Positions 37,729-54,900 of a DNA stretch of 64,000 bases are shown here, in pieces. This DNA is from a virus. How positions within the stretch are numbered: the first letter of the stretch is position 1; each line of letters starts with the position of its first letter. The stretch covers positions 29,561-93,560 of IMG/VR virus record IMGVR_UViG_3300005336_000001; one strand, written 5' to 3'. The notes below the pieces were generated by a model, which worked only from the letters and a program-made list of their open reading frames with translations, searched no databases and had not been told where the DNA came from. The translations under genes were made by a program, and so were the position numbers.

Positions 37729-38271
37729 GAGGAAGCTTCCTTCTACGCTTCTTATTGTAGTCTATAAATTGTCTAATTTAATGGTTTAGGCATAGTTCCG
37801 CTTTCCGCAATGTCGGGTATAGCTGCCTATACCATGCGGTTGCGACGGTTATATAGCACGTACTTCCATGGATACATTTTAACGTGTGCCGCACGGTCGG
37901 GCTAGAAGCTAACCTTCTAGTGTATATTGCCTCTACTCACGTAGATGCTTCCCTTAGAAGTCCATGGTATGGATCAGCCCAATAACCTGCAACTGACCCG
38001 GTACGGAAAGTCCCTGCCTCTGTACCCGTAGAAGTGTTTCACGCTTCCTTGGATAGCTTTGCGCGAGCAAAAGATACCCGTGCTCCGTCTTCAGGTGGTT
38101 TGTTGATGGAGGACTCAATCGGCCTAAGGCCGGGTCTAGCAAGCTTGCCGATTTGACCTCTGGCGGGTTTTGGCTTATCTAGGCCTCTGCCCTGCCGGGC
38201 TTTTCCAGTTCCTTGCTGTCATCAAGATCTGGATCGGAGCCGCTCCTGCTGAATACAGGGCGGCTCCACTT

Positions 38272-38592
38272 TTATACGCCGGGGGCAGCCCCAGATGTCA
38301 AGTGCCTGCCTAACCTGCGAACCGGGCCATGTTTTATCTCATAAGCCTTCAACAATGTTTTGAAGTGCGGGCTTTGAAGCATTCTGTACTTCGGCACCGC
38401 ATGTGCGTCAATCATCACCTTGTTACTGTTGATGTCCGAATAGTAAACAGCCCAAACATCGTGTCCCGTAAATTCATCTAATCCATTATCAAAGGTTGGC
38501 CGATTACAAAATTTCTTTTTAATTTTTAAAAATCTATCCCAATTGAGACAGGCTCTGAGCCATTCATCATAAGGCATTTCAACCTTGCTCAT
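38272..38592 (-). CDS. GPH-motif family protein
   Basis: MLQSPHFKTLLKAYEIKHG. Confidence 0.75.
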   Translation of the reverse strand: MSKVEMPYDEWLRACLNWDRFLKIKKKFCNRPTFDNGLDEFTGHDVWAVYYSDINSNKVMIDAHAVPKYRMLQSPHFKTLLKAYEIKHGPVRRLGRHLTSGAAPGV

Positions 38593-38873
38593 TTATTCCT
38601 CTTTTTGGTCCACGTGTTGGCAGGTACCTCACTGATGCCATCGCCAAGATCATACAGGAAGACGGTAACCATGAAATCCATCTTATAAGCAGTCAGCATT
38701 GCCAGCGACACGCTTATATCAGCGAATTCTTGATAACCAACCTCCTCACCTTTTCCCTGTTCAGCCTGATCGGCACCTGTACAGGAATTGTCATGCCATG
38801 TTGGTTCCATGATGGCCGTGACATTTTTCCATACGTAGGGCTTCTTGCGTCTATCAATCACGTTTCCGATCAT
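38589..38873 (-). CDS. Hypothetical protein
   Basis: Coupled ORF. Confidence 0.6.
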   Translation of the reverse strand: MIGNVIDRRKKPYVWKNVTAIMEPTWHDNSCTGADQAEQGKGEEVGYQEFADISVSLAMLTAYKMDFMVTVFLYDLGDGISEVPANTWTKKRNK

Positions 38874-39135
38874 TTTTTAACTCCCATGCTTTCAAGATAG
38901 TTTTCCAGTATGGCCCAGCCAACATGTTAAAACGTTGCTCCACCTCTTTAGAGGGCACACCTACAATTTTTTTACTATTATCTGTAAACACAAGCGATTC
39001 AATCCTACAACCTACGTATTCAAATACGTTGTATCGCGACATATCTGGATAGTGACATTCCCAATTTTCTATCGCAACGACAAAAGTCGTGTATAGGATT
39101 TTGCAGTCACACATAGGCCATTGTGTTGGTTTCAT
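38854..39135 (-). CDS. GPH-motif family protein
   Basis: MLAGPYWKTILKAWELK. Confidence 0.75.
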   Translation of the reverse strand: MKPTQWPMCDCKILYTTFVVAIENWECHYPDMSRYNVFEYVGCRIESLVFTDNSKKIVGVPSKEVEQRFNMLAGPYWKTILKAWELKNDRKRD

Positions 39136-39163
39136 GGTTTCACCAGTTGGAAAATTGACTAAA

Positions 39164-39194
39164 GAAAAACTGGGGATGATTGCTCATCCCCAGT
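39164..39194 (-). terminator. Rho-independent terminator
   Basis: ACUGGGGAUGA-GCAA-UCAUCCCCAGU followed by UUUUU. Confidence 0.85.
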
Positions 39195-39216
39195 ATCCCT
39201 TAACCGCCTAGAAATA

Positions 39217-39585
39217 TCAGGCGGTCACTTCTTCATCGGAATCGCTGAGGTCGTCAACGGCATCACCGTCATCCTCACCTTCATCCGAGTCAGCCTGACC
39301 ATCGAAATCCATCAAGCTCTTGATGAACTCGTCGTCGTTCGCCTTGCCCATGGTCAGTTCGCCCGACATGATGTCAGTCAGGGCACCGGCCAACGCCGAG
39401 CCGCCACGATTGAGGTTATCCACGCAATCATCGAGGTCGGCTTTTTCCTGATCGTTGATCAGGCCAGCCCGGTGCAGATCGCCGGTGTGAATGTGCTTCG
39501 CTTCGTCATAGCCGTTCGCCTCGGTCAGGCGAGCAGCGATGTGTGGGCGGTGCTTTGCAATGGTTGCCTTGAGGAGCTTTGACAT
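39217..39585 (-). CDS. Hypothetical protein with acidic tail
   Basis: AAAGGA RBS; own terminator. Confidence 0.7.
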   Translation of the reverse strand: MSKLLKATIAKHRPHIAARLTEANGYDEAKHIHTGDLHRAGLINDQEKADLDDCVDNLNRGGSALAGALTDIMSGELTMGKANDDEFIKSLMDFDGQADSDEGEDDGDAVDDLSDSDEEVTA

Positions 39586-40096
39586 GTGGTCTTTTCCTTT
39601 TGTGAGCATACCGATACAGGAAGGTCCTGCTCACAACCCTCCTGTTGAAGCGTAATGCTTCTCACTGAGGCTGATTAAAGCCTCAGGACAGAAACATTAT
39701 CTGATCTGCTGATATAGAAGGATGTTTCCAATTGTGATTCCAATAAAGATGTCAAATAAGGCAGCAATCATGAACCACAACATGATTTGCAATGCTCGTT
39801 TATCATTACTCATAGATAGACCCTTTCTGCCCCGGCTCATTGGAGCCTGTGCACGCAAGATTGTGATTAGTTGCTTTGGGGCAACGTTTGTTCCCGCAGT
39901 TGCGACACACCACCATGTGAACGGCAAGCTCGTTGCGCTCTTTGATACATTTGTGACAACCACATGCACCATTTGTGAGGGAAGCAAATGTACGTTCTTG
40001 CTTTTGCTGCATTTTCTTTAGACAGTCCAAGGCAACCTCCTATTAGGATTAATACTTTTGTGGTAGTTGAGAGTTCTCCAAAAGGAGGACCCCATT

Positions 40097-40393
40097 ATGT
40101 GGGATTGGTTCCAACGGAAGCGACGAGGGCACATCCTTCGCCGCATCGAACGAAAGGTGAATTGGCTCATGTCCAGTTTTGATGACCTTGCGGCAGCGCA
40201 AGCAGATACGCTTACCAAAGTGGCGGCAGTGAAGACTGACGTCGAAACTTTGCTTGCCCAGATCAAAAACATTCCGCCTGCTGGCTTAACGCCAGAGCAA
40301 CAGGCAGCGTTGGATCAGGCTGTGACCACTGCACAGAGCATCAATACTGCGCTCTCTGCGGTAGACACGGAGGTTCATCCTCCAGCGGCCTAA
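40097..40393 (+). CDS. Ala-rich helical protein on the opposite strand
   Basis: AAAGGAGG RBS; 98 aa. Confidence 0.7.
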   Translation: MWDWFQRKRRGHILRRIERKVNWLMSSFDDLAAAQADTLTKVAAVKTDVETLLAQIKNIPPAGLTPEQQAALDQAVTTAQSINTALSAVDTEVHPPAA

Positions 40394-40397
40394 TGCA

Positions 40398-40670
40398 CAA
40401 AAATGGCCACTGAGGAAACAGGAGGAGAATCCCAAACCTCAGTGGCCACCTTCTGCTGCACTTATAATGGTGAAAGGACCGAACCCATCATAAATGCGCG
40501 AACCGACGCCTTGGTAGGTTTCACTGTGAAGTCAAACCCGGAGGGCCAACAGTGACCACAGAACCTACCCTTGATTTATTCACCCGTTGACGTCGCGCGG
40601 CTGTAACTGATCTCACCGTCACTGCGGCCTCGGGTCCAAACTATGCGTAAACTTTTGACACCGCAACAGG
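40398..40670 (-). ncRNA. Putative multi-hairpin sRNA with anti-Shine-Dalgarno loops
   Basis: Gap without a long ORF; three stem-loops; the last is a 12-bp stem followed by UUUUU whose loop holds UUCUCCUCCUGUUU. Confidence 0.55.
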
Positions 40671-41068
40671 AAATCAAAAGTCTTTGGATTTGAACGCTCT
40701 TGATGCGGCCTTTTCAGCCAGTTCCTCATATGAATAGGGCCCAATCAATTGGCCCACTGGTTCATCATCTTCATCAATGAACTGGTAGTAATATCCAAGC
40801 ATTTGGTCCCCGTCTTCATCAAAGAAAGGCATTTCAGAGGGGACAAACTCATGGATAAGGGCATTGCATACCGCCATCATGTTTCCTTCATTTTACAGCC
40901 TTTACCAAGGCTGACTGTTGGCCGACGACGGCGTATATCAAATACCTCCCACCGCCTACGGCTATTTTAGTTTTGGCAAGCGCCTCAACTTCCGCAAGGG
41001 ATTTACATTCATCCCTCGTATAATGCCCGACACCGTCTTTCTTGACGAGAGTAAAGTAGTCGGCATGT

Positions 41069-41380
41069 TCACAGAACCAATCGTCCCTTTCTTGATACGT
41101 TTTGAAGTCTGGCATCAGCTTCCCTCCTTTTGATTAACAGTGCTTGATAAATTGCCCAACCATGCGGACCGGCGATTGCTTTGCACTTTGTAAGATGCGG
41201 CTTGAGTAAGTCGATCCATAACCCATACTGACTGTTTATTTCAGGAATTTCACCGCTGAATAGCCAGCATAAGTATGGTTTTCCTCTCGCTCTTCTATAA
41301 TTAGGCACGACGCGACCTTGATCATACCAGTGCTTGAGTGTGCTACAGGCATCTTCAATTATGTCAGTGAATGTTTCCAT
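41069..41380 (-). CDS. GPH-motif family protein
   Basis: AIAGPHGWAIYQALLIKR; AGGAG RBS. Confidence 0.75.
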   Translation of the reverse strand: METFTDIIEDACSTLKHWYDQGRVVPNYRRARGKPYLCWLFSGEIPEINSQYGLWIDLLKPHLTKCKAIAGPHGWAIYQALLIKRREADARLQNVSRKGRLVL

Positions 41381-41480
41381 GTTCAGCTCCTGAAAATTGA
41401 CAAACGAAAGCCCCCTCACCAGCATCACTTGGCGAGGGGGCAGATTAGTTCAGGTGCTCGGGAGGCTAAACCTAAACTAA

Positions 41481-42011
41481 TTACTTCTTCATCTTCAGGA
41501 AATAACGTGTGACCGAACGTTGGCCTTCACGCTCCTCCTTAACACGCTTGACCTCATGGCCAGCTTCTTCAAGGCCATTGAGGACGTTCAGTTGGACCGA
41601 ACCAACCGCTTCCTTGACCTCTTCAAGAGTAGCACCCGCTTTGGCGGCATAGAGCGCCACAGCTTGAGACTTGGCGCTGCCTTCACGGAAGCCCCATGCG
41701 TCCTTCTTCACTCCCTCGGCCTTTGGCTTGGCAACCTTGGGCTTTTCTGACCCTTTAGCGGCCTTTACCGTGGCCTTGGGTGCGGCCTTGGCCTTGGCCG
41801 CTACCTTGACCGCCTTTGCCACCTTAGGCTTGCCAGCGGCCTTTACAGGCGGTTTAGCCGCCCCATTTGCCTTGACCAGTGCCTTTGCCTTTGCCTTGGC
41901 CTTTGGGGCCGTCTCTTCCATTGCTTCACTCATGTACATAAACTCTGCTTTGTTGTTGGCATCCCGTTTAAGGAAAGTGGGGATGTCAAGGGGTTCAGGC
42001 ACTGTGCCCAT
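41481..42011 (-). CDS. Histone H1-like K/A-rich protein with C-terminal winged-helix-like domain
   Basis: KAKAKA/PKVAKA tracts; DAWGFREGSAK..GATLEEVKE. Confidence 0.75.
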   Translation of the reverse strand: MGTVPEPLDIPTFLKRDANNKAEFMYMSEAMEETAPKAKAKAKALVKANGAAKPPVKAAGKPKVAKAVKVAAKAKAAPKATVKAAKGSEKPKVAKPKAEGVKKDAWGFREGSAKSQAVALYAAKAGATLEEVKEAVGSVQLNVLNGLEEAGHEVKRVKEEREGQRSVTRYFLKMKK

Positions 42012-42411
42012 TACTAGGTTCCCTTTCCTCAGATTACAGAGCTAAAGAACTGGAACCGCTAAGTCAAGCGGGATTCCAATTCATTTAGAGGTTTTTGGTT
42101 TCAAACTATTTTGGATTACTTTACTTCGTTGAGAATTGGCTCACCTTTGGCCAAAATCTCTCGAGCACCCTCAAGTCCGCCCTCTACACCTTCACCACAA
42201 AGCGTGCAATTAGGTTCTGCAATGCCTTGCTCCACTTGATCCTTGAGGCATTCAAAGACCTCAAGCCCATCATCTGTGCCGGGCAAGATATCATTGCATA
42301 TGGGACATTTACGACAATAATTCATGTCTTTTGTTGACATGTTTCTCCCCCCTGTTGAAGTGTAGTGCTTCCCGGAGGGCTGACCTAAGCCAGCCCTCGA
42401 AGCTGCACTCG

Positions 42412-42678
42412 TTACTTTTTCAGCTTCTGACGACCTTCAGATGTAAGGGGAAGGCTCGTAGCCCCCATTGCAACAGCAGCCGCAGCAACTGTCGCAAATT
42501 GCGGCCTACGGGTCTTACCCTTGAACCAATTACGAAGGGTAGAAGTAGTGGGGCCACCTCCAGCAGTGATTTCACCATCTGACATGTCAGTGTCACGCTT
42601 GAGAGTGCGCAACACATCGATAACCGGGTCCTTATCCACAAAGGGATAAGCCTTATAACGCAAGAATCCTCTTGCCAT
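42412..42678 (-). CDS. XRE/Cro-like HTH protein
   Basis: PTTSTLRNWFKGKTRRPQFATV. Confidence 0.7.
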   Translation of the reverse strand: MARGFLRYKAYPFVDKDPVIDVLRTLKRDTDMSDGEITAGGGPTTSTLRNWFKGKTRRPQFATVAAAAVAMGATSLPLTSEGRQKLKK

Positions 42679-42758
42679 ACGTTCTCTCTCCTGTTTTAAC
42701 ACTGAAGCCTTTAGAGCTTCGTGCTGGGGCTTGAGAAGCCCCAGTGTCGAAGCTCTAA

Positions 42759-43097
42759 TCAGACCCTTACGAAATGTCCACGTGAACGTGGCTTTGCCAG
42801 CTTAGCCTCCTTCATGGCCTTTACATAATGATTGTATGCGGAGGCAGAAGCGCCGAGTTGGGTAAGGTGTTGTTTGATGTTCTTAGAAGTGAACACAGTG
42901 TCCTTGGGAAGCTTCTCAACGTACTTGAGAAACATATCCTTGTAGGATGAAGCATTGGTTTCAGCCTTGACAACGCCCTTCTCAACTGTGGCATTCACCA
43001 CCGGCTGCGGCGGCTCCATGTTCAACACCATGCCTTGCACGGCGTGAAGGACTTTTGACAACTTGTTGTCCTCCACAAAAAACGTAACTCTGAACAT
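42759..43097 (-). CDS. Hypothetical protein, possible C-terminal winged helix
   Basis: Strong RBS element; 112 aa. Confidence 0.65.
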   Translation of the reverse strand: MFRVTFFVEDNKLSKVLHAVQGMVLNMEPPQPVVNATVEKGVVKAETNASSYKDMFLKYVEKLPKDTVFTSKNIKQHLTQLGASASAYNHYVKAMKEAKLAKPRSRGHFVRV

Positions 43098-43170
43098 ATT
43101 TTCTCCTCCTGTTGGTTGAAGCGTTAATGCTTCTGACTACGCTGGTTTGATCCAGCGTAGGGTAGAAACA

Positions 43171-43533
43171 TTACTCGTCGTCATCAACTTCAGTCAGCTC
43201 GTCCTTGCGGACACGCTTCTTGACATTTAGTGTGGCCGAAAGGTTCAAGAGCTCGAATTTGAGATCGATCAGATCAGTATATTCTCGTGCCCTGTACCAG
43301 ATATTGTGATTGACCTCCTTGCCGGATTTTTTGCTGACAAGGTAGGTTTTGTACCATGACTTGGACTTGGACGGCTCACCTTCCACATCTTTGATTTTTT
43401 CGTATACGTGAACTTCACGTGAGGGGGAAACATCAATCACCCATTTGGGCTTTTCAAGAAATGCTTCAGGCAATGTGAGAGCAAATTTCTCAGCTTCAAC
43501 ACGCTCAGTGACAACGTTGGTAGTTTTTCGCAT
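43171..43533 (-). CDS. Hypothetical protein
   Basis: Strong RBS element. Confidence 0.65.
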   Translation of the reverse strand: MRKTTNVVTERVEAEKFALTLPEAFLEKPKWVIDVSPSREVHVYEKIKDVEGEPSKSKSWYKTYLVSKKSGKEVNHNIWYRAREYTDLIDLKFELLNLSATLNVKKRVRKDELTEVDDDE

Positions 43534-43596
43534 ATTCTCCTCCTGTTGGAGCACTATTGCTCACCAACACCCCGCGTGCGGGATGCGGCGTGAACA

Positions 43597-44439
43597 TTAG
43601 GTTACCGTCATAGAACCGGATACTTCCAACTTTGGAAACGGCTCAGGGGATGAGCCCTGATTGCGCCACGTCAAGCTCTTGACGTCCCTTTTATAAAAGG
43701 CGGCATTTGCCGCCTTTATCATCAGGGCAATTGTGACTACCGGATCCTTTTTCCTCGTGTTGTCGCTTGCAAAGTACATGCGCAACCTGAAGAATGGATC
43801 GTTCATGCTGATACCTGCCGGGTTTTCCAAAGTATGTACCATCCGTTCAGCCAATTCAGGGCTGCGGTTGGCCAAAATATAATAGAAAAACCCAACAATG
43901 GAGGGGTTTGCCAAACCCCTCAAACGGCTGACACGTTCAATCGCTCGTTCAACACCGGGGTTATTGTCGTACATCAATTCGATGTCTGAATTTTCAATCC
44001 GGTTTTGCGGTGAACGATAGTTCTCAATTGTTCCACGCTGCCATCGTATCAGCCACTGGAAAGCTGCTGACATGTAGCTTCGGTAACGCCCCGCACCTTT
44101 CAATGCAAGGATGTCAGAGCCGGAACGTGCTTTACGTAGAGTATCAATGGTGGCAAATGCGTCCGCTTCAATTCCCTCAACAATGAGGGTTTCAACAGGC
44201 ACATTTGCTTCCACGATGGCCCACAACCTGTGTTGTCCATCCAACACGTCTTTCTTCACTGAGAACTTGATAGTGTCCCCATTGAAACGCCATTTCCCTG
44301 CAATGATCTGTGCAGCAATTCGCTTGACGTGTTGCTCGTTCAACGGCCTGTTGTGGGTATTGTATTCAAGATACTGCATGGCCATCTCAGGCGTCAGAAG
44401 TATCTTTCTTGGATTGCCGTTGGTGGGAGACCCACTCAT
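43597..44439 (-). CDS. ParB/Srx-like DGQHR-domain protein
   Basis: TPEMA..NTHNRPL..GKW..I.F..LDGQHRLWAI. Confidence 0.8.
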   Translation of the reverse strand: MSGSPTNGNPRKILLTPEMAMQYLEYNTHNRPLNEQHVKRIAAQIIAGKWRFNGDTIKFSVKKDVLDGQHRLWAIVEANVPVETLIVEGIEADAFATIDTLRKARSGSDILALKGAGRYRSYMSAAFQWLIRWQRGTIENYRSPQNRIENSDIELMYDNNPGVERAIERVSRLRGLANPSIVGFFYYILANRSPELAERMVHTLENPAGISMNDPFFRLRMYFASDNTRKKDPVVTIALMIKAANAAFYKRDVKSLTWRNQGSSPEPFPKLEVSGSMTVT

Positions 44440-44905
44440 GTTCAAACTCCATAAGCCACGCAGTTGCAGTTTCAAGAAGCTCGTTGACGGTGCCCTCACG
44501 CCCCCTGTTGCGCAAGACCACCCCAACCATTTCTTTTGGACTTGGAAGGCTTGTTAGGCTCTTCAGTGCGGGGCGCAAGTCACCCCACAGAGCCGTGTCT
44601 TGCTCAGACACGGTCATGAATTTCTCAGAACGTATTCCAGCGAAGCGTCGATCAAGCACTTCCTTGATCTGTTCTTCAGTCATATGCTTTTTGACCCTTT
44701 TGTAGATATCACTTAGGCCATAAGCACCGGACTTGAACTGAGCTATTTCATCTTCAGTACCGTACAAGATGATCACACGAGCTTTGTTTACCGAACCGCG
44801 CGAAAGACCTGCTTCCTCAGCAACCTGTGTCAAAGGTACCTTGGTCGTACCGATGGTCTTTTGCACGGCAGACATGACCTTTACAGGGTCATATTTCCAT
44901 ACCAT
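44387..44905 (-). CDS. Putative HTH DNA-binding protein
   Basis: LTQVAEEAGLSRGSVNKARVI. Confidence 0.6.
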   Translation of the reverse strand: MVWKYDPVKVMSAVQKTIGTTKVPLTQVAEEAGLSRGSVNKARVIILYGTEDEIAQFKSGAYGLSDIYKRVKKHMTEEQIKEVLDRRFAGIRSEKFMTVSEQDTALWGDLRPALKSLTSLPSPKEMVGVVLRNRGREGTVNELLETATAWLMEFEHEWVSHQRQSKKDTSDA

Positions 44906-45148
44906 GTTTTCTCCTCCTGTTTTGAGCGTAGATGCTCACCACTGCCGCTCGTAAGCGGCAGGACGTGAACAACTATTTTTCAACATAGCTTTTCAAGCTA
45001 AGTCGAATTTCATCAGCACTTTTTTCGTCACTTTGATTTGGGAACACATAATCATATGATCCCATTTCAAAGATTCGATTTAAAAGTTCAAGATGACGTT
45101 TGGCTTGAAGCGGGGTAAATTCAAGCCACAGAGGCGGCTTATTTCCCA

Positions 45149-46333
45149 TTAACCCGTCTCTGACACATGGATGCTGGTGCCAAACGGGGCACGTGCAACC
45201 AGTTGGTCGAAATATTGTGACGGACCGTAGACTGCCCACATGACTGGGCAACCGGGGTCTTCACCATATTCGTTAACCTGAAGGTCAGTCAGGTAGATGA
45301 CGCAACTGGCATCAGGATGATTTTTGCTGAGCCAATTAAACGAGTCACGGAAATCAGTTCCGCCACCCGTGTATTGACCAATGGTAACCATATCGCCCTG
45401 CACGAATTCATCAACGTGTTGAACCCGTGTGTCGGCGTAGGCCACCACGATCATGTCAGCGGTGCCCTGATCCAACGCACCACCGACTTCACTGAGCATT
45501 TCAAGCGCCATCTTGTGACTGACGGAACCTGAAACATCAATAAAGAACACCAACTTGTTGAGCCTGTCTGACACATAGCCCGGCATCAGAACACCCAATG
45601 CCGCCGAGCGCCTGTTGGGGCGAGCCCAACTGGTAGCCTTTGACATTGATTGATCGATGAAGCGCATGGTCAGATCACGCCATGACACCTTTGGTTTGCT
45701 CAATTCCGCGATCAAGTTCCTGAGTGATCCCGGTATTTGGCCAGCATTTTGTCCTGCGGCAACCTGTACCGCAGCGCGCACTGACATTTCCCATTCATGC
45801 TTAGTTGCTTCCTTCTTATCAGCATTGCCGGGAGCATCCATCACACCACCACACCCACCGGGATCGGTGCCGTCACCAAAGCTATCCACGTACACTTTTT
45901 CAAAAGTGTCATAGATTTCTTCAGTGGTCATTCCCTTGTACTTCTTGTCAATGCAACACTTGAAGTTTTTTCCACTAATCTCACGATCATGGATTAACTT
46001 GAAGCCTGCCTCCTGAAGATCAAGGTTGATGACGAAATCACCTGCAATGTTCCACGCTTTGGGATCGCGCGTACCACGGCGAGTGAAATGCTGGAAGCAA
46101 CAGTGCATGACTTCGTGCGCTACCAAGAACTCCAACTCACGATCGTCCAATTGATTGACGAAATTGGGATTGTAGAACATGGACACGCCGTCAACACCGG
46201 CGGTTGGCAGATCATAACTTTCCACCAACCGCAATTGTAGTGCAAGGAAGCCAAAGAAACCGTTGCTCACCAGCAAACTTGTGCGGGCGGACACCATTTT
46301 CTCTAAAGCTCCTTTGTCCTTTATCTTAGCCAT
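45149..46333 (-). CDS. DUF2201-type metallopeptidase-vWA fusion
   Basis: TAGVDG, AHEVMH (HExxH), NIAGDFVIN; IDVSGS, GGTDF, YLTD. Confidence 0.9.
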   Translation of the reverse strand: MAKIKDKGALEKMVSARTSLLVSNGFFGFLALQLRLVESYDLPTAGVDGVSMFYNPNFVNQLDDRELEFLVAHEVMHCCFQHFTRRGTRDPKAWNIAGDFVINLDLQEAGFKLIHDREISGKNFKCCIDKKYKGMTTEEIYDTFEKVYVDSFGDGTDPGGCGGVMDAPGNADKKEATKHEWEMSVRAAVQVAAGQNAGQIPGSLRNLIAELSKPKVSWRDLTMRFIDQSMSKATSWARPNRRSAALGVLMPGYVSDRLNKLVFFIDVSGSVSHKMALEMLSEVGGALDQGTADMIVVAYADTRVQHVDEFVQGDMVTIGQYTGGGTDFRDSFNWLSKNHPDASCVIYLTDLQVNEYGEDPGCPVMWAVYGPSQYFDQLVARAPFGTSIHVSETG

Positions 46334-46467
46334 ATTTTCTCCTCCTGTTTTTGAAGCATAACACTTCACTAAAAAGATGAGCCCCCACACAGAGGTAGGT
46401 CAAACTTGTATGGGGGCGATGCCTTACGTGTTTCCACGTCTTACAGGCACATCTTTTTAAAGCAGAG

Positions 46468-46818
46468 TTAGCGTAGTTCGAAACTCACACGTTCATCCGT
46501 GTCATTACGGATGAATTGCTCATAGATAGAAGGTTTTTCCTCTTTGAGCTTCTTTTGATCAAGCCGATCAATGGGGATCAATTTCAGGATAGCCTTGAAC
46601 AAAGTTCCCTTCAATTCACCCTCATCGTGCTTAAGTTTGTCCTTGATTTCGTTCTTGATGGACTTGTCAAGCACCTCGCATGTTTTGGCCACAGGTTTAA
46701 GGCGTGCGGCCAAATCGATCTTGTCTTTGAGTGTCATGGTGTCAAGTTTCTTGGAAAAGCCTTCCAAGATATCGGCCATGTCAGCAAGGTCCATTTCTAC
46801 TGCTGGTTTCAAGTGCAT
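46468..46818 (-). CDS. Hypothetical protein
   Basis: RBS element; RLDQKKLKEEKPSIYEQF. Confidence 0.65.
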   Translation of the reverse strand: MHLKPAVEMDLADMADILEGFSKKLDTMTLKDKIDLAARLKPVAKTCEVLDKSIKNEIKDKLKHDEGELKGTLFKAILKLIPIDRLDQKKLKEEKPSIYEQFIRNDTDERVSFELR

Positions 46819-46882
46819 TCTCCTCCTGTTGAAGTTTGATACTTCCTGCTGCGGTGAGATTAGTCACCGCAGAGTGGAAACA

Positions 46883-47518
46883 TCATTTGGTCAAGTAAAG
46901 GAATTTAGTGCCGGGGGACTTCAGTTTGATCAAGATTTTGAGCATGTCATTGATCAGACGCTTTAGCCCTTTCAAATCCTTGACGTGAGCCATGTAGTCG
47001 CATTTAACGTCAATGGACTCATTAAGTTTGACATTACAGTAAAACTCATTGCCAGCCTCAAGGTTTTTGAGAGCTTCTTCAAGCTCCTTACGCTTGTCGG
47101 CAATGCCAGCAAGATATGTCTTGCGACGCTGGCTGGACCATTTGCTGAAGATGTATTCACGCATGGCGTCATTCCATTGTTCAGTAGTGATGGCTTTCGC
47201 CGAACCCAATTGGGCAATGGCAATCTTACGCAAGCCACGACTACGCTCCATCTTGGTCTTTTCAGAGTTCTGGCAACCATCCTCGTCATTCCAATAACAG
47301 GAATCATTGAGGCCAATCTTCATGTCACGGATTGCGCGCAATACACACTTTGGGTTATCCGTGTGAGGTTCACCCATGGCATATGCCACGGCTGCTTCTA
47401 CACACATCTGGCCCGGCTGAGGGCTGCCCACACCATGGGATAACCCTGCATCGACAACCTTCAGCACTTTGAGAACAAGTGCTTTGGTTATGGGTGTGTT
47501 TTTGACTTTCTTAGCCAT
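46883..47518 (-). CDS. Hypothetical protein
   Basis: RBS element; MCVEAAVAY..EPHTDNPKCV. Confidence 0.7.
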   Translation of the reverse strand: MAKKVKNTPITKALVLKVLKVVDAGLSHGVGSPQPGQMCVEAAVAYAMGEPHTDNPKCVLRAIRDMKIGLNDSCYWNDEDGCQNSEKTKMERSRGLRKIAIAQLGSAKAITTEQWNDAMREYIFSKWSSQRRKTYLAGIADKRKELEEALKNLEAGNEFYCNVKLNESIDVKCDYMAHVKDLKGLKRLINDMLKILIKLKSPGTKFLYLTK

Positions 47519-47592
47519 AGAAATCTCCTCCTGTTGACGAAGCATTAGTGCTTCTCACATGCCCGGCTGTGAACCGGGCATGGACAGAAGGA

Positions 47593-48618
47593 CTAAATGT
47601 GCAGCGACTTGTTGTTCTTGGCCCACGTCACAAACGTGGGGGTATCGCACAACGTGCTGTCACGCTTGGTAGCGTCCAGCACAACCACGGTGCTGAAGTC
47701 CGCACCAAAACCATCCCGGTTGATGTATTTGTAGATGGCCGGGAAAGTGTCCTTGGTCGTGCTGCGTGCTAACAACGCACTGAGGGCGTACCGGCCAGCC
47801 GGTGCATCGGGGATATCAGCTTTCATCGGGTTGGACAAGATGTCCTCCAAGTCCGGCAACTCAGCCGTCTTGAAGTAGGTCTCAACCTCCAACGCCGCGC
47901 CCTCACCGACAATAGCTGCCACCAGTTTGAAACGCATGCCCTCCGGTGCGTCGAACACCTTCGAAGCACTTGCCCAAGAACGCGGTGACGGGAAGGCCAA
48001 CAAGTCAGCTCCTTCCATGCTGTGGATGAGGTTGGGACGGTACTTGATGAAACCGATCAACATCGGATCGATACCATTCAAGTTCGCCCAATGCCCCCAG
48101 CATTCAGCATCAGCCCGGATGTGAACATGTGCGAAGCGGTTTGCCAAAGCTGATGACAGCGATTGCGCCGCAGCACGATCTTCCCTCCGGTTGCCAGCGG
48201 CTACCGGCCACCACCCATCGGGTAACTTGTAATCGCCGATCTGACGATCCAAGATCACCCGGTAGATGCATGACTGCAACTGACGCGGTGCGTCACTGAG
48301 TTCGTCAAACGCGATAATGCCCTTCGGGCCATCACGGTTCACGTCAGGCCAGAAGGCAGCCCGCAACCATACTGCCAGTTTTTTCTCGAGGTCAGGCACC
48401 GGGATGCCTGTGAGATCTTCAGGCAACATGGTGCCCACACGGACGTCGATAAAGCCGGACTCATCCTCAGCAGCAAGCTGTTTCATGATGTCCGACTTGC
48501 CGATGCCCGGCGCACTGTGGAAGTATGTGGGAATGTTTTTTGACCTGAAGATGCGGGCAATATCCTTTGCCGTCTCAATGGTCTCAGTGCGTACCCCACT
48601 TGTTACGTTTTCACTCAT
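47593..48618 (-). CDS. MoxR-like AAA+ ATPase
   Basis: SAPGIGKS, DLTGIP, FDEL, AAGNR, ALANRF, SPRSW. Confidence 0.9.
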   Translation of the reverse strand: MSENVTSGVRTETIETAKDIARIFRSKNIPTYFHSAPGIGKSDIMKQLAAEDESGFIDVRVGTMLPEDLTGIPVPDLEKKLAVWLRAAFWPDVNRDGPKGIIAFDELSDAPRQLQSCIYRVILDRQIGDYKLPDGWWPVAAGNRREDRAAAQSLSSALANRFAHVHIRADAECWGHWANLNGIDPMLIGFIKYRPNLIHSMEGADLLAFPSPRSWASASKVFDAPEGMRFKLVAAIVGEGAALEVETYFKTAELPDLEDILSNPMKADIPDAPAGRYALSALLARSTTKDTFPAIYKYINRDGFGADFSTVVVLDATKRDSTLCDTPTFVTWAKNNKSLHI

Positions 48619-48698
48619 AGTTCTCTCCTCCTGTTTAGGAATGAAGCATTGTCGCTTCTTACTACTGTCACCTTTATGGCGACAGTAGGGTAGAAACG

Positions 48699-49034
48699 TC
48701 ACTTCATCGCAAGTTCGCTTTCACGGATCAGATCAGATCTGATCACGTCTGGGAGTGCCAACCGTGCACGTTCCATTGCCGCTCCGTAAGTACGGGGATG
48801 GTTCATGGCAATGTCGTTCACGACCTGTGGGATGACAAAATCATCATCATCGATGGTGGCTTCGGTCAAGCCAACCAACACTTTCCGTGCTTTTGGGAAA
48901 GCAGCTTTCAACGATTGAGCCAGCAAACATGAACGAGGATTGCCCGCATCATAGATGCCGTCGTAAGGTTTTGCCTGAAGCCATTTGATCAGGCTCTCCA
49001 CGTCCTGACGTGTGGCCGGTTTTTCATATACCAT
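48699..49034 (-). CDS. Hypothetical protein
   Basis: RBS element. Confidence 0.65.
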   Translation of the reverse strand: MVYEKPATRQDVESLIKWLQAKPYDGIYDAGNPRSCLLAQSLKAAFPKARKVLVGLTEATIDDDDFVIPQVVNDIAMNHPRTYGAAMERARLALPDVIRSDLIRESELAMK

Positions 49035-49233
49035 AGTTCTCCTCCTGTTAGATGCGGTAATGCATCTTTGAGCGCACCCCGTAGGATGCGCCCCGTAGAT
49101 GAACTACTTCAGTTGTATTCTGATGATGTATGGTAAGCGAACACCCGCCACCATCCTGCGAACGCCATCGTGTGGCACGTAGACGTATTTGCCAAAACAA
49201 AGCCAAACACTGTATGTCATGACGATGCCCTTA

Positions 49234-50109
49234 TCACTTCATGTAGCTTTGGACTTTCTTCAGGATCTTGTCGGCCTTGCTGATAGTTTCAGCACGCACC
49301 TTGTTATCCGCACGCAGAATTTCAGGTGAGTGCTCAACCAGATCAGAGCGTAACTGCTTTGCCAATTCAGTGATGCGTGGATCATCAGTGACATTCAGAA
49401 CTGGAATGAGGTTGACCAGTTCATCAATGTTGTACACCAGCGAACTGTGGATGGTGCCTTCAGCCTTGTTGCCATCCTTGGATGGCACGTAAGCCTTAAG
49501 CTTTTCAGTCATGTGCCGAACGAGCCCCTCAACCCGTCCAAAGACGTCCTTCATGGCATTTTCCAGACGCTCATTGGTGCGCCGTTCAATGTCCTTGATG
49601 ATGGCCTTGGTGGATTCATCGCTGAGTTTGGCACGGAAATCCTGTGCCTGTGGCAGCGGCTTGACCTCGACGTCGAAGTCAAACTTGGCCTCAAGCACAC
49701 TCACGTCAGGGTAATCGTCCTGATTGAACATGTCACCCAGCCGCGTTTTGCCTTCCTTGATTGCATTGGGCAAATCATCAAGGAAAGCTTTCACTTCCTT
49801 CTCAATGGCAATGCGGCAATCACGCATCTTTTTGGTGTACTCGATGTACCCCGTGTTGCTGAGGATGCGCGTACCATCATCCTCCCACGGCAACGTGTAC
49901 AGCCGATGCACCTTGCGGGCATTGCTGTGCGCCGTGGAAACGCCACTGAAGAAACTGGCCTTGACCAACCGCTTGTTATATCGGCCTGCTTCTTTCTCAG
50001 CCTTGAAGTCAGCATTGACGGAATCAGTGACCTCTCGGTCCACCATCATGCCTGACCATGACTTGATATGGAGCGATGAAAGCATCGCCCTTTCAGCTAA
50101 TTTGCTCAT
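49234..50109 (-). CDS. DUF3150-like helical protein
   Basis: L.I..WSG..D..V..K.L..TLPW..G.R.L..F..DYP pattern; next to MoxR/vWA genes. Confidence 0.6.
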   Translation of the reverse strand: MSKLAERAMLSSLHIKSWSGMMVDREVTDSVNADFKAEKEAGRYNKRLVKASFFSGVSTAHSNARKVHRLYTLPWEDDGTRILSNTGYIEYTKKMRDCRIAIEKEVKAFLDDLPNAIKEGKTRLGDMFNQDDYPDVSVLEAKFDFDVEVKPLPQAQDFRAKLSDESTKAIIKDIERRTNERLENAMKDVFGRVEGLVRHMTEKLKAYVPSKDGNKAEGTIHSSLVYNIDELVNLIPVLNVTDDPRITELAKQLRSDLVEHSPEILRADNKVRAETISKADKILKKVQSYMK

Positions 50110-50178
50110 GGTTTTTCTCCTCCTGTTTGAAGCACAAATGCTTCCTACTATGGCCCGCAGGCCATAGAGTGGAAACAT

Positions 50179-50712
50179 TCAGTAACCAGCCTTCTCAAGC
50201 TTGGCCTGAAACTTCTTCATGGCCGCATGGAAAGGCTCAGGGTCCATGGGCTCATATGGTGGGATGTCAGTGCATAACTTATTCAACTTTCGAGTCTCAG
50301 GAGTGTTGTCCCAGTCATACATGTTTGCATCAGGAAACAAACTGCTGTAAGCCACCAGAGCTTGACCAGTTCTCAGATTGTTGATGGCATGGAGCTGCTT
50401 CATGTTGGCGGGAAATGAAGCAGGCTCCATGTAGCGTTTTTTGCCATCGGCACCCAGTGAGAAGGCCATGACACTGCCAGCGGCACAGACCGAACATATC
50501 TTGGTCTTGCTGATGGTGCTGTCACCGACAACACAGGTCAATTCCGCATTGGGCTGATACCAATCATCCATGTCGACCGCGTACTTGGTCTTCATTTTTT
50601 CCACTTTGCGGAGATCCTTCAAGGCAATGGCAACGAGCTTGCTCATGACCATGGGCAGGATGACGAGTTTCTTGGCTTTGGGTTTAGTTCTAGCTTTGGC
50701 TTTCTTAGCCAT
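50179..50712 (-). CDS. Hypothetical protein
   Basis: RBS element; DMDDW..CSVCAAG. Confidence 0.7.
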   Translation of the reverse strand: MAKKAKARTKPKAKKLVILPMVMSKLVAIALKDLRKVEKMKTKYAVDMDDWYQPNAELTCVVGDSTISKTKICSVCAAGSVMAFSLGADGKKRYMEPASFPANMKQLHAINNLRTGQALVAYSSLFPDANMYDWDNTPETRKLNKLCTDIPPYEPMDPEPFHAAMKKFQAKLEKAGY

Positions 50713-50918
50713 AATTTTTACTCCTCCTGTTTGTGGGGACGAAGCGTAATGCTTCTCACTGCGGCCACATGAGCCGCAGGACAGAAACATTAGTCAAAGT
50801 CGGTGTACTCGTCAGGTTTGCTGTCCTTGCAATAAAGGAAGTTCCCCACTAGCACCAACGCAATAGCAAAGAAGGTCATGGTGAACAGAAACGCTTCTTT
50901 TGACATGTTCTCCTCCTG

Positions 50919-51452
50919 TTAAGTTAGGCTGAAAATGTCAGCCAAGACTTGTGTGATAATTGGCAAACTGGCCTCATCGCCCGTAATTTTCCATTGATTA
51001 CGGGACACCATTTGAAGTTCGTACATGGTGTTGATATCGCCCGGCTTCCCCGTGTAGTAACCAAACTCCCTTAGGTTGATCACGAACTTTTTGTCATACC
51101 GTCTACGGAAGTGTTTCATCATCTTTTTTGAATTAAGATGGATGACTTGATAGTCCTCGTTTTCAGCAACTCTAGTAAGAAGTGCATGGCCGAAAATGCT
51201 GATGGTTTGGCGGATGAAGCGCTCACGCTTCAATGCCCTACTGGTAGCTTCAGGGTCGGCAAAGTCCCCAGATGATTTGACATGCTCAAGTTGAAACTTG
51301 AGGCAATCAGCAGCTTCTTGGCAGGACAAGAAAGGTAGCAGCCCTCTATGGAAGTCAGGTCGGCCACTGTAGCTTCGCACACACATGACAATATAATCCT
51401 GCCGTGTGGTGTTTAACTTGTCCAAATAAGTAGCGAGTGTTTTTACACTCAT
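50919..51452 (-). CDS. Hypothetical protein
   Basis: RBS element; 177 aa. Confidence 0.65.
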   Translation of the reverse strand: MSVKTLATYLDKLNTTRQDYIVMCVRSYSGRPDFHRGLLPFLSCQEAADCLKFQLEHVKSSGDFADPEATSRALKRERFIRQTISIFGHALLTRVAENEDYQVIHLNSKKMMKHFRRRYDKKFVINLREFGYYTGKPGDINTMYELQMVSRNQWKITGDEASLPIITQVLADIFSLT

Positions 51453-51516
51453 TTTCTCCTCCTGTTTTGTAGATGTTCACCACTGCCCCTCCACGTGGAG
51501 AGGCAGGACGTCAACA

Positions 51517-52002
51517 TCAGATATTATCGGCAGCCGCCACAAATTCACGGATTTGTTTGGCAACTGCAAGTTCACCTTCAGCACCAACAGGAAGTTTCCT
51601 GTTGTCGTATTTCTCTTCATATCCTTCACCGGTGAAGAGATGGTAGACAGCCCACCTGTCAATTTCAAAGAAATCACCGACGGCCTCAAAGTTATCCAAG
51701 CCGTTGAAGTAAGGCGTGAGATAGTACGCGCCTTCCGCAGACTTGAGTTTGTAGGTCAACCCTTCATCCTTGAAGATGCCACTGATGGCAGCAAAACCCA
51801 CAGCACACGCGACGGTCCCACAATCAACCGGGACAGTCTCAGTTTCAGATTTGAACAAATATGGAATATTCGTGTCATAGTCTGCGTCGGCATTGTAGCC
51901 ATCCTTGGCTGCCCACGTGCCGATATCAAATTTGATACCAGTGGGATTGGCTGCGTCCATTTCAAGGGCAGCGGCCAACCTCAACAAAAGATCTTTACGC
52001 AT
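51517..52002 (-). CDS. Hypothetical protein
   Basis: RBS element; FDIGTW..CGTVACAVG. Confidence 0.7.
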   Translation of the reverse strand: MRKDLLLRLAAALEMDAANPTGIKFDIGTWAAKDGYNADADYDTNIPYLFKSETETVPVDCGTVACAVGFAAISGIFKDEGLTYKLKSAEGAYYLTPYFNGLDNFEAVGDFFEIDRWAVYHLFTGEGYEEKYDNRKLPVGAEGELAVAKQIREFVAAADNI

Positions 52003-52079
52003 AATCATCTCCTCCTGTTTGACACTCACCATGAGTGTTCAGTCCTGCTCACCCAATTAAGGATGAGCAGAGTGAAGAC

Positions 52080-52295
52080 TCAGCCTTCGTCGAGATCAAA
52101 CGTGATACGCTTTGGCGCCCGGCCATCCAATTTGGCCTTACGCAAGTAGAGCGTACCGACGATGGCACCGTCAGCGTCAGTCTTGAGATGAACGCCGTTT
52201 TCATCCACTTCCTGATAGCGCAGTGCGCCCGGCGTAGTCTTGATCAGCTCGAAACTGACCTTGGCGATATGACCCGCATGAGTTTTCTCAGTCAT
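52080..52295 (-). CDS. Small hypothetical protein
   Basis: RBS element; TPGALRYQE..GTLYLRK. Confidence 0.7.
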   Translation of the reverse strand: MTEKTHAGHIAKVSFELIKTTPGALRYQEVDENGVHLKTDADGAIVGTLYLRKAKLDGRAPKRITFDLDEG

Positions 52296-52960
52296 GATAT
52301 TCTCCTCCTGTTGAAGCTTAATTGCTTCTTTGGACGCTGATATTTTGCCCAGCGCCCCGTAGAAACAATTTCAGAGATGTGTCAACATAGAAATGACAAA
52401 CTCCTCATTGGAACAATCATACAATCCAGCCACATATTTTGGCCGGGCATGATCTGCCCGCACACGCGCTGCAAACCGAACATTCGGCTGCCTGCGCAGC
52501 AATGAGACGGCGTTAGCTGCCGACTCAGGATTGTTGAAGCGCAACACGCTCGCAGTGCCGTCACGCTCCATGACCAACACGTTCATAGGTTCGGGCTTCA
52601 TGTGATGCTTCTCCGCTTTTTTGAATTTGGCTTCCATGATTGCCGCATCCAGATCTTGACCACGCAGGCCAGCACCAAAAAGCCGTGCACTGAGCACGGC
52701 CTCTGAATCTGTCCCATTGATGAAGTCTGTTTTGATCTGAGCAATGCGGCGGTTTACTTCTGGCCACAATGGCTCGCTAATCGTCGGCATTATCAGCCTC
52801 AAGTACACCCAAATTGTTGTACTCCGTTACCGGAATAACAATTTGAATGTTCCATTCAGCGTTGCGGACAGTTTGAGCAAAACGATCGGCTGCCTCAAAC
52901 GAGTCATAAGGGCCAACCAACCGTGTGCCATCGAACGCATTGCCAACTGCAACGACGTAC

Positions 52961-53128
52961 TTAGGCATTGGAGCGCTCCTTCTTTGGAAGCGTCAAAGTC
53001 GCCAGTTCCCACCCGCTGTTCCACTCACCGGCCAAAACCGAACCAAGTGGATGTGGGCAGTCTTGAAGTTGCTTGCCCTCTTCACAGGCACGGACTCCTT
53101 CGAGCCATGCCTTTTCAAACTCATTCAT
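52961..53128 (-). CDS. Rmf/CrpP-fold small protein (55 aa, below ORF-track cut-off)
   Basis: MNEFEKAWLEGVRACEEGKQLQDCPHPLGSVLAGEWNSGW; AGGAGGAG RBS. Confidence 0.7.
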   Translation of the reverse strand: MNEFEKAWLEGVRACEEGKQLQDCPHPLGSVLAGEWNSGWELATLTLPKKERSNA

Positions 53129-53622
53129 TTTCTCCTCCTATTACAGTCATAATGACTGACCACTACCGCTCGTAAGCGGCAGGACGTCAGCAATCATGCT
53201 TCGCTGGGATCGAGCGCAAACAAAAGGTTCGTAAGAAATGCAATGTGCATTTCATAGTGCGGATGCCACTCGTGAACCGCCCAAATGCCACCAGCCGCAC
53301 AGATGAGAACTATGCGGTAATGACGCTTGCGTACCTTCACCTTCTCAATGTGAGGCAGGTGAAGTTTGGACCAACGTACACTCTTCACGGTCCACCTCCT
53401 TTCATTGGCTGGCAGCTCGCTCGTAAGTGCCAGCGCGAGTGTTTTCAGTGAAATTCATTTGGGAGGAGATGTCCCACCAAACGATCATGAAAAAAGCCGC
53501 CCCAAGCAGAGCGGCTTTAAACAGATGCTGAACCTTTTCGCGGTTGTCCATTTCTCCTCCTGTTTCATTGAAGCGTGATTGCTTCTCACTGCCCCACGTA
53601 TGGGGCAGGACAGAAACAGTCA

Positions 53623-53973
53623 TTATTTGCCGCGCCCGTAGTAGAGCTTGGCCAATTCAGCATCCCGCTCTTCAGCGGGGATGAGCACCAACCGCGTCAG
53701 CACCGTGCCCCAGTCTTTGCCCCAAATCTTTTGGGCGGCCAGATGGTCAAAGATCAACGTGTCAGCACTGGGCACCTCTTCCATGACGGTCACATTGAAA
53801 CCGCCTTGGTTTTCTTGGTACTCATAACAGATGTGATGACCAATCAACACATCCTGCACGCCATACACTTCACGGATGATGTCCTTGAAGAGTTGACGGC
53901 TGATGGCATTCCGGTCGTTTTCCCACACGCCTTCAATTTTCACGCCACCGGGCGTGAAGTCCTGTTTGTTCAT
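53623..53973 (-). CDS. Hypothetical protein, paralogue of 6301..6606
   Basis: EVPSADTLIFDHLAAQKIWG. Confidence 0.75.
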   Translation of the reverse strand: MNKQDFTPGGVKIEGVWENDRNAISRQLFKDIIREVYGVQDVLIGHHICYEYQENQGGFNVTVMEEVPSADTLIFDHLAAQKIWGKDWGTVLTRLVLIPAEERDAELAKLYYGRGK

Positions 53974-54277
53974 TTCTCTCCTCCTGTTCAGATTAGAAGC
54001 ACAGATGCTTCTCACATGGCTGATTGCTCAGCCATGGACAGAAACATCAGTGAAGGATGCCAACCACAATGGCCAGCACGATGACCACCGAGCCAATGAT
54101 GCCAAGCATGGCAATCCAGTTGACCCGGTAAGGCTGCTCAGTGAACACATCGACCGCTTCATCAAGCTCGTCCCTGCGGTCAAGCTTGTCGTCACGGTTG
54201 GGGTCCGGCATCATGTATTCAGAACCAATCATATTTTCTCCTCCTGTTATGAAGCTTAAATGCTTCTTGCAGGGCGC

Positions 54278-54900
54278 TTATTCATCGCCCTGTGTAGAAA
54301 CATTCTTGTAGCCATGCTTTGCTGCGATGGCTTTCAAGATTGTTAGAACGTGTGGGCCTCTTGCTTGCGTAAGTGATATCCTTTTTGATATTAGATCCTC
54401 TTTACACCTGCGCCAGCTATCCAACCCATCACCCCATGGTTCATCTGGAAAACCAAAGGTTTGTGCGACTAGCAACAAAGCATCGTGCAAACTCGCCGTC
54501 TGCCCATTGGCACGTATATGTCTGAGGGCATAAATTACCCCCAACATGTAATCATCTTTTTTATCTATGGCCATTTGGGATACTTGCTCAAGTCAACCCC
54601 ACGGATGGTTGCCAGTGCGTACACCAGTATTTTTCCATGAGGGCCAGCCAATGCTTGGAGCATCAGTGCTCGTTTTGCATCACGAGGCTTTTGACCATGT
54701 GATGCAGCAGTGTGGAAGTGTTGAGATGCTGAATTGCGCCCCTTGAGATCCTTTACTTTGTATCCCAACAAGGCACGCAACACGGATGGACTTCCACGCT
54801 TGTCACCCATCCGTCTTGGCATATTGCCCAAGGCGGCATGCCAAATCTCAGTCCAATCAGCACGTTCAGGGATGTGACGTCTTGGATTACCTCTAGGCAT
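54278..54900 (-). repeat. Two GPH-motif paralogues (54278-54574, 54565-54900)
   Basis: ARGPHVLTILKAIAAKHG; LAGPHGKILVYALATIRG. Confidence 0.75.

Follow-up and report, generated by a model that had tools for sequence, protein, structure and literature searches.

A conserved phage hairpin with a loop complementary to the shared ribosome-binding site of a gene block: a putative regulatory RNA

Background

Temporal shut-off of early phage genes is known to proceed via proteins, through promoter shut-off, the RegB nuclease and the RegA repressor, and the phage antisense RNAs known to us act on single genes. The c4 RNA of phages P1 and P7, which controls one operon (icd-ant) for immunity, shares a transcription unit region with its target and is freed through processing by RNase P. 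The loops of the P1 RNA pair at the ribosome-binding site (RBS) of ant and block its translation (PMC12197685), and in phage T4 RegB inactivates early mRNAs via their GGAG Shine-Dalgarno (SD) sequence (PMC3014915).

The cuckoo, alpha-r14 and RSs0680 (CcsR) small RNAs (sRNAs) of the alphaproteobacteria consist of two to four adjacent hairpins, each of which carries CCUCCUCCC in its loop (PMC4615179). The anti-SD loop motif is the sole conserved sequence of cuckoo RNAs, their stems varying through compensatory changes, and in some members transcription is shared with a small hypothetical gene upstream and a terminator-like hairpin follows (PMC4615179). RNAIII of Staphylococcus aureus, a 514-nt chromosomal quorum-sensing effector, forms imperfect duplexes that are specific to each of its targets. 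Its hairpin 14 (H14) is the terminator, so that one of its loops belongs to the 3′-terminal hairpin. Pairing with SD regions takes place through the C-rich loops of hairpins 7, 13 and 14 (PMC2837412). In full-text searches of the literature and in a 2025 review of phage sRNAs we found no phage RNA described as antisense to an RBS that many genes of the same phage share.

We analysed a 64,000-nt stretch of DNA from a soil phage, referred to here as the window, in which an initial annotation had placed a putative minus-strand sRNA with a terminator loop antisense to the RBS shared by a group of early genes. We favour, at a probability of roughly 0.55, the reading that the phage encodes a regulatory RNA which pairs through its loop with the RBS common to a gene block and represses the genes of that block together.

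Results and discussion

Genome setting

The window corresponds to bases 29561-93560 of a 93,560-bp IMG/VR record, the two ends of which carry an identical 50 bp. From ~6 kb to 64 kb nearly all genes are encoded on the minus strand and the phage looks lytic. Its DNA polymerase is ~30 % identical to those of known phages, and blastn against the INPHARED phage set recovered no DNA relative. An ORF on the plus strand at 1-2586, open at the 5′ end of the window with 861 aa within it, has a G+C content of 66 % compared to ~47 % for the genome and is probably a repetitive fibre-like gene. ARAGORN reports a 71-nt tRNA with a CUA anticodon, labelled Pyl, at 25112-25182 on the minus strand, which falls below the Rfam tRNA threshold.

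A terminal hairpin displays the complement of a shared RBS

The conserved core of the element is an anti-RBS hairpin at 40404-40448 on the minus strand, identified by sequence, fold and covariance model, in which a 12-bp GC-rich stem (5′ arm UGGCCACUGAGG, 40448-40437; 3′ arm CCUCAGUGGCCA, 40415-40404) closes a 21-nt loop (UUUGGGAUUCUCCUCCUGUUU, 40436-40416). A U5 tract (40399-40403, minus strand) follows directly 3′ of the stem and resembles the 3′ end of a Rho-independent terminator. Within the loop the 14-mer UUCUCCUCCUGUUU (40416-40429, minus strand) is the exact complement of AAACAGGAGGAGAA. Exact copies of AAACAGGAGGAGAA occur on the minus strand at 44909, 46337, 50115, 51454, 53552 and 55310, and on the plus strand at a single site (40416-40429), which is the hairpin loop. 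With up to one mismatch the window contains 17 copies, compared to 0.07 expected by chance, 16 of which are RBSs of minus-strand genes between 43101 and 55323, leaving the loop as the sole inverted copy. The position of the hairpin, the six exact sites with the loop as their perfect complement and, among the 17 near-exact copies, the unique inversion of the loop were thus all as initially annotated. A looser second inverted SD-like string, AUCUCCUCCUUG, is found at 56240-56229.

The 286-nt stretch at 40395-40680 is far more stable on the minus strand than its shuffles (z = -4.7), and most of the hairpin loop is predicted to be unpaired, the exception being a weak inner helix of 4 bp. A covariance model of the hairpin has a single match in the window, at 40399-40453 (E 3.5e-6).

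The complementary RBS is restricted to one gene block

The predicted targets, based on motif counts and duplex energies, are a block of ~18-20 minus-strand genes at 43101-55323 with the RBS (A)ACAGGAGGAGA(A), whose products include a ParB-like protein, a DUF2201 metallopeptidase/VWA protein, an ATPase and many unknowns. On the gene strand of the window CAGGAGGAG is confined to this 12-kb block. Every minus-strand copy of AAACAGGAGGAGAA stands between a small GAAGC-N5-6-GCUUC hairpin on its 5′ side and a start codon on its 3′ side, both being parts of an intergenic cassette repeated across 43101-55900 of the window (minus strand) in the order variable GC-rich hairpin, GAAGC-N5-6-GCUUC hairpin, (A)ACAGGAGGAGA(A), start codon. 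The same cassette is present in the relatives L002, L003, L004 and L143 and may represent an RNA processing or stabilising unit. Early timing of the block is assumed from its position in the genome.

In the window, L002, L003 and L004 each region contains 14-21 gene-strand AGGAGGAG sites, a start codon accompanying every one of them, and the single inverted copy per region is the loop; to this the window adds the looser string at 56230. Over 66 sites the RBS block AACAGGAGGAGA(a) is conserved at 86-100 % per position, and the complement of AACAGGAGGAGA coincides with the conserved part of the loop, including a UGU opposite ACA. A 16S rRNA tail of the CCUCCUU type would not pair with the ACA of the cassette RBS.

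Predicted duplexes between the loop and translation initiation regions range from -20 to -26 kcal/mol for cassette genes versus -4 to -15 kcal/mol for most others, and when both strands of the whole genome were scanned cassette RBSs accounted for 18 of the 19 sites found on the minus strand at ≤ -22 kcal/mol. The target 13-mers are predicted to be ~50 % unpaired on average. The hairpin is thereby predicted to possess what is looked for in a trans-acting sRNA, an accessible conserved seed complementary to several translation initiation regions. The nearest cassette RBS lies 2.7 kb upstream of the hairpin and the targets as a whole 2.7-15 kb upstream.

Directly upstream of the first cassette gene is a 1.2-kb ORF-free, hairpin-rich stretch (55910-57150, minus strand), within which AUCUCCUCCUUG, as a second anti-SD-like string, is situated directly 5′ of a hairpin. 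Only ~100 nt of this stretch are conserved (73 %), in one relative.

Stems are rewritten and the loop is retained among relatives

Relatives were fetched from viral, metagenome and genome collections using the ParB-like neighbour and gene X, a 75-aa gene (40888-41115, minus strand) that lies upstream of the hairpin as a conserved neighbour in every close relative. A same-strand hairpin with an anti-SD loop was located 66-460 nt after gene X in all 15 loci for which downstream DNA was present. Among these are 11 distinct hairpin sequences, their stems 10-19 bp and their loops 16-24 nt long. The stems differ wholly among relatives (GGCCACUGAGG, GCGGAUCGGG, GCGGGGUGGG, AUGCCCCGUGUG, AUGCCCGCUAGG, CCCGCCGUCAGG) while the loop core CUCCUCCUGU is retained in most of the 11, taking the form UUCUCCUCCUGUU in most and the variant forms CUCCUCCUUA in L024 and GUCCUCCUGUA in L022, lineages with variant loops being represented by contigs of 1-6 kb.

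As MAFFT alignments misalign the hairpin arms, an alignment based on the covariance model was used in place of RNAalifold. For seven distinct sequences 70 of 70 cells were paired and seven of ten pairs showed double compensatory changes; an alignment of this kind leans to structure, and an alignment-free analysis of the stems agrees with it. The covariation score of 0.795 compares to 0.24 for shuffles (0 of 500 reached 0.795) and to ≤ 0.24 when the pairing was slid. The model finds exactly one copy of the hairpin per genome.

As a control we drew on a pattern scan of viral contigs for GGNTTCTCCTCCTGT, in which the matches listed were mostly unrelated. Among those listed, the stems flanking the same 15-mer in unrelated viral contigs were mostly 2-5 bp long, and the six unrelated matches with the longest stems all lacked SD copies on the same strand and resemble normal RBSs of genes encoded on the opposite one. 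The comparative evidence establishes the hairpin as genuine and as subject to selection.

The structure belongs to the gene-strand RNA

Of the 11 stems, 8 contain G-U or U-G pairs, which become A-C mismatches on the opposite strand. Such pairs are compatible with the gene strand only, and the structure is therefore that of the gene-strand RNA. The covariance model likewise gives ≤ 17 bits on the reverse strand compared to 25-90 bits on the gene strand.

Were the plus strand the functional one, the loop would be the RBS of a small plus-strand ORF or a protein-binding site at the DNA level. The plus strand of the stretch also folds well (z = -4.2), and in the window it offers a perfect SD with a GTG 14 nt downstream that opens a 37-codon frame. 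This spacing is not workable however, no other usable start codon is available in the window and none was seen in L009-type and L012-type sequences, and relatives are without a convergent gene at the hairpin. Together with the strand-specific G-U pairs and the low reverse-strand scores this makes a plus-strand function extremely improbable, and the RBS/ORF version of it was discarded. An inversion of the whole cassette was also dismissed, since the inverted GAAGC-N-GCUUC hairpin is absent.

The window does contain a lone plus-strand ORF of 98 aa (40097-40393, strong SD AAGGAGGA), which converges on the hairpin and stops 11 nt away from it. It has no counterpart in L002 or L004, is lineage-specific and lies outside the conserved element. 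The ORF encodes a basic N-terminus, is located in the minus-strand arm of the genome and is divergent from a Cys-rich 74-aa ORF at 39806-40030.

Genes adjoining the hairpin

Between gene X and the RNA lies a 68-aa gene (40674-40880, minus strand) confined to the lineages of the window, L020, L022 and L024, for which a protein search recovered a near-identical contig alone. The gene X family comprises 21 clusters only. We considered gene X as an RNA-binding partner and dropped the idea; its AF2 model is an alpha-beta fold (pLDDT 92) with no match in the PDB (Foldseek, E ≤ 0.001). Scans of PHROGs and Pfam with gene X, the 68-aa ORF and the plus-strand ORF returned no match.

A strong terminator-like hairpin of 12 bp, nine of them GC (41441-41410, minus strand), separates gene X and the 68-aa ORF from the cassette block. 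After it comes a promoter-like TGAACA-16-CATAAT with an extended TG, and this segment (41358-41441, minus strand) may be the start of a small operon that ends in the anti-RBS hairpin.

Transcript architecture upstream of the hairpin

The region at 40449-40673 (minus strand) appears to be a structured non-coding leader or body of the RNA (fold z = -4.7), includes a hairpin with the loop GUUCGGUCCUUUCA and yielded no conserved ORF in our search. Its structure is partly conserved in three sequences (the window, L020 and L022). Just past the stop of the 68-aa gene we identified a candidate promoter, TTGCGG-N17-TAGTTT (40638-40666, minus strand). Five L009-type sequences, all from one sub-clade, share an invariant TTGAAG-N17-TAA(A/G)CT within the 30 nt past the gene X stop, the spacer of which partly varies, and L024 has TTGAAG-N17-TAGCTT at the equivalent place. 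The L009-type motif is promoter-like and would give an RNA of ~110 nt. A strict promoter motif was not found in L012, L023, L020 or L022, so the element there may be a plain 3′-UTR of gene X. The promoter-like motif and the U-rich tails of most lineages fit either a small RNA or one derived from a 3′-UTR.

A mid-domain of the RNA, GGGUGAA..AAGG..GGUUC-stem-GUGAAACC, can be recognised in the window (40500-40600, minus strand), in L020 (~3540-3600) and in L022 (~3050-3130) with apparent covariation of its stem. It is restricted to lineages that also carry the 68-aa gene and has no Rfam match. An Rfam cmscan of 38000-43000 at E values up to 1 found no family at the locus and two chance matches elsewhere, Rfam at gathering scores recovered two tRNAs alone in the whole window, and a tRNA/tmRNA scan gave nothing at the hairpin locus.

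In many lineages a second hairpin with a C/U-rich loop (UCCUUUC, UCCUCU or UUCCCCCU) precedes the terminal one on its 5′ side. The initial annotation had described two upstream hairpins with exposed pyrimidine-rich loops, of which GGUCCUUUCA is indeed exposed in the minimum free energy (MFE) fold while GGCCCUCCGG is partly paired. Loops of this kind are absent in L015, L021 and L020 and variable elsewhere, so they do not define the element.

The second loop bears on the proposal that the RNA is a generic 16S-like anti-SD decoy, in which a CUCCUCC loop would bind strong host SDs, or a host factor specific for CU-rich loops, in the course of host takeover, and the match to phage RBSs would arise incidentally, loop and RBSs alike being adapted to the host ribosome. 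CCUCC, the core of the loop, is the universal anti-SD, GGAU-CUCCUCCU bears a loose resemblance to the 3′ tail of 16S rRNA, and the additional C-rich loops of many lineages would suit G-rich SDs generally. Conservation of the terminal loop is not confined to the SD core however and includes UGU and UUCU, complementary to ACA and AGAA, the phage-specific flanks of the cassette RBS, and the second loop is not maintained in the three lineages named above. We regard a generic decoy as quite unlikely.

Terminator-like features of the hairpin

In the window the 12-bp GC-rich stem and U5 tract have the form of an intrinsic terminator, as initially annotated. The loop does not: terminator loops are typically 3-8 nt, whereas those of all 11 distinct hairpin sequences are 16-24 nt, and a consensus terminator scan missed the hairpin because it admits loops of 3-8 nt only. 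U-rich tails 3′ of the stem are present in the window, L012, L023, L020 and L024, weak in L009-type sequences and absent in L143, the inverted copy of which shows that a terminator is not universal to the design.

The hairpin could accordingly be imagined as a plain terminator or 3′-end stabiliser, its loop a relic of an inverted RBS cassette without base-pairing function. Besides the stem and U-tract, the A-rich tract that several lineages have on the 5′ side of the stem, as in bidirectional terminators, and the plus-strand ORF ending 11 nt away in the window would be in keeping with such a role. A relic loop would decay however, yet a core of 10-13 nt is fixed in most lineages whose stems have been wholly rewritten. 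Loops of 16-24 nt are also atypical and costly for terminators, no other part of the cassette was found inverted, and L143 retains the loop in the absence of a U-tail. A function restricted to termination or stabilisation is for these reasons very unlikely.

A distant relative places the loop within the block

L143 (DASTCT010000326.1) is a 92-kb contig with a gene X of 41 % identity. CAGGAGGAG occurs there 10 times in sense orientation and once inverted, although one inverted 9-mer in 92 kb is by itself not significant. The inverted copy is again displayed in a large hairpin loop, here closed by a stem of 18 bp (fold z = -7.5). This hairpin lacks a U-tail and is located within the cassette block, where a cassette RBS follows ~85 nt downstream. 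Its placement suggests that display of the loop is the conserved principle and that terminator function is lineage-specific, and it hints at a role in cis. The contig is binned in an Acidobacteriota MAG ('Ca. Angelobacter'), which is either a hint of the host of the clade or the result of a mis-binned phage contig.

Acting in cis, the loop would pair within the molecule with one or a few RBSs of the same long transcript, tuning or gating the translation of certain neighbours or organising mRNA folding and processing, and would not be a diffusible global repressor. Apart from the arrangement in L143, such a role is favoured by L012, where ~27 nt separate the gene X stop from the first hairpin with no promoter motif, so that the element is at least partly a 3′-UTR there. 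In the window however the nearest cassette RBS is 2.7 kb away with the terminator-like hairpin at 41441-41410 in between, the genes adjoining the hairpin are without the cassette RBS in the window, L002, L003 and L004, and even in L143 the MFE fold does not pair the loop with the nearby SD. We judge a purely cis-acting element to be unlikely.

Comparison with known antisense systems

The putative regulatory RNA resembles the cuckoo RNAs in having a conserved anti-SD-like loop (CCUCCUCCC in cuckoo, UCUCCUCCUG here) on stems that vary by compensation, as seen in the double changes at seven of ten pairs and in the pairing of 100 % of cells. It differs in being phage-borne and in that its loop fits a 10-14-nt RBS consensus of its own genome and not a generic SD. 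The architecture of two to four hairpins with CCUCCUCCC is not reproduced; the terminal hairpin alone has the motif, which reads UCUCCUCCUG, and upstream loops are heterogeneous or absent. The curated Rfam models of anti-SD sRNAs do not detect the element. The alphaproteobacterial families cited in the initial annotation are consequently analogues only, sharing the logic of a conserved loop on a variable stem.

C-rich loops acting on the unpaired strong SDs of several related mRNAs to block the 30S subunit are a feature of RNAIII that the proposed RNA would share with it and with UCCC-loop sRNAs (PMC2837412). There is no sequence or structural homology to RNAIII, and in contrast to the imperfect, target-specific duplexes of that RNA the complementarity predicted here is perfect and directed at ~20 near-identical RBSs.

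The c4 RNA of P1/P7 is likewise a phage-encoded RNA with a loop complementary to a phage RBS. Here, unlike c4, a single loop matches the RBSs of a multi-gene set, the phage looks lytic, no tRNA-like element or processing signal adjoins the RNA and the targets are situated 2.7-15 kb upstream, past a terminator-like hairpin. In function the closest parallel is T4 RegB, in that a class of the phage's own messages is singled out by a shared motif in the SD region and, in T4, jointly inactivated once the early period is over. In T4 the agents, RegB and RegA, are proteins, whereas the discriminating agent here would be an RNA loop acting by base pairing.

Proposed mechanism

The favoured reading retains part of the initial proposal of an sRNA, namely a conserved strand-specific RNA structure, an RBS-complementary loop, a U-tail and a promoter-like motif, and gives up the upstream loops, which are not conserved. 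The stable hairpin would form the 3′ end of the gene X transcript and, where a sigma-70-like promoter of its own is present, as predicted in at least some lineages, that of a small RNA of ~110-270 nt. Its large loop would display 10-14 nt exactly complementary to the extended SD region (A)ACAGGAGGAGA(A) common to ~20 genes in the block just upstream. The loop is proposed to pair in trans with these RBSs while they are single-stranded and to out-compete the 30S subunit, and the pairing could also create a target for RNase. As the RNA would be protected by its stem it is expected to be stable and, once accumulated, could lead to a joint translational shut-down of the whole block. We infer from the sequence a discrete RNA species, its pairing in vivo, repression as the direction of its effect and the timing of that effect.

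Two features of the design constrain this model. With one hairpin against ~20 target sites per genome a stoichiometric effect requires accumulation or catalysis, and a 14-bp helix inside a closed loop of 21 nt is topologically strained, so that effective pairing may be limited to ~7-10 bp.

Conclusions

In its broadest form, to which we give a little less than even odds, the proposal is that in this lytic phage clade one small RNA is the master post-transcriptional switch for ~20 genes with the same RBS address, which are silenced together as the RNA accumulates. The element is short, makes clear predictions for compensatory mutations and provides a search rule for other phage genomes, in which hairpin loops antisense to the genome's own consensus RBS can be sought. 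If true, the locus would represent a new and very compact design of viral timing switch, an RNA loop that addresses a whole block of genes via an extended RBS. It would parallel T4 RegB/RegA by means of RNA only, provide a natural example of a regulon defined by RBS sequence and mean that RBS sequences are able to evolve as regulatory 'addresses' beyond their role in ribosome docking.
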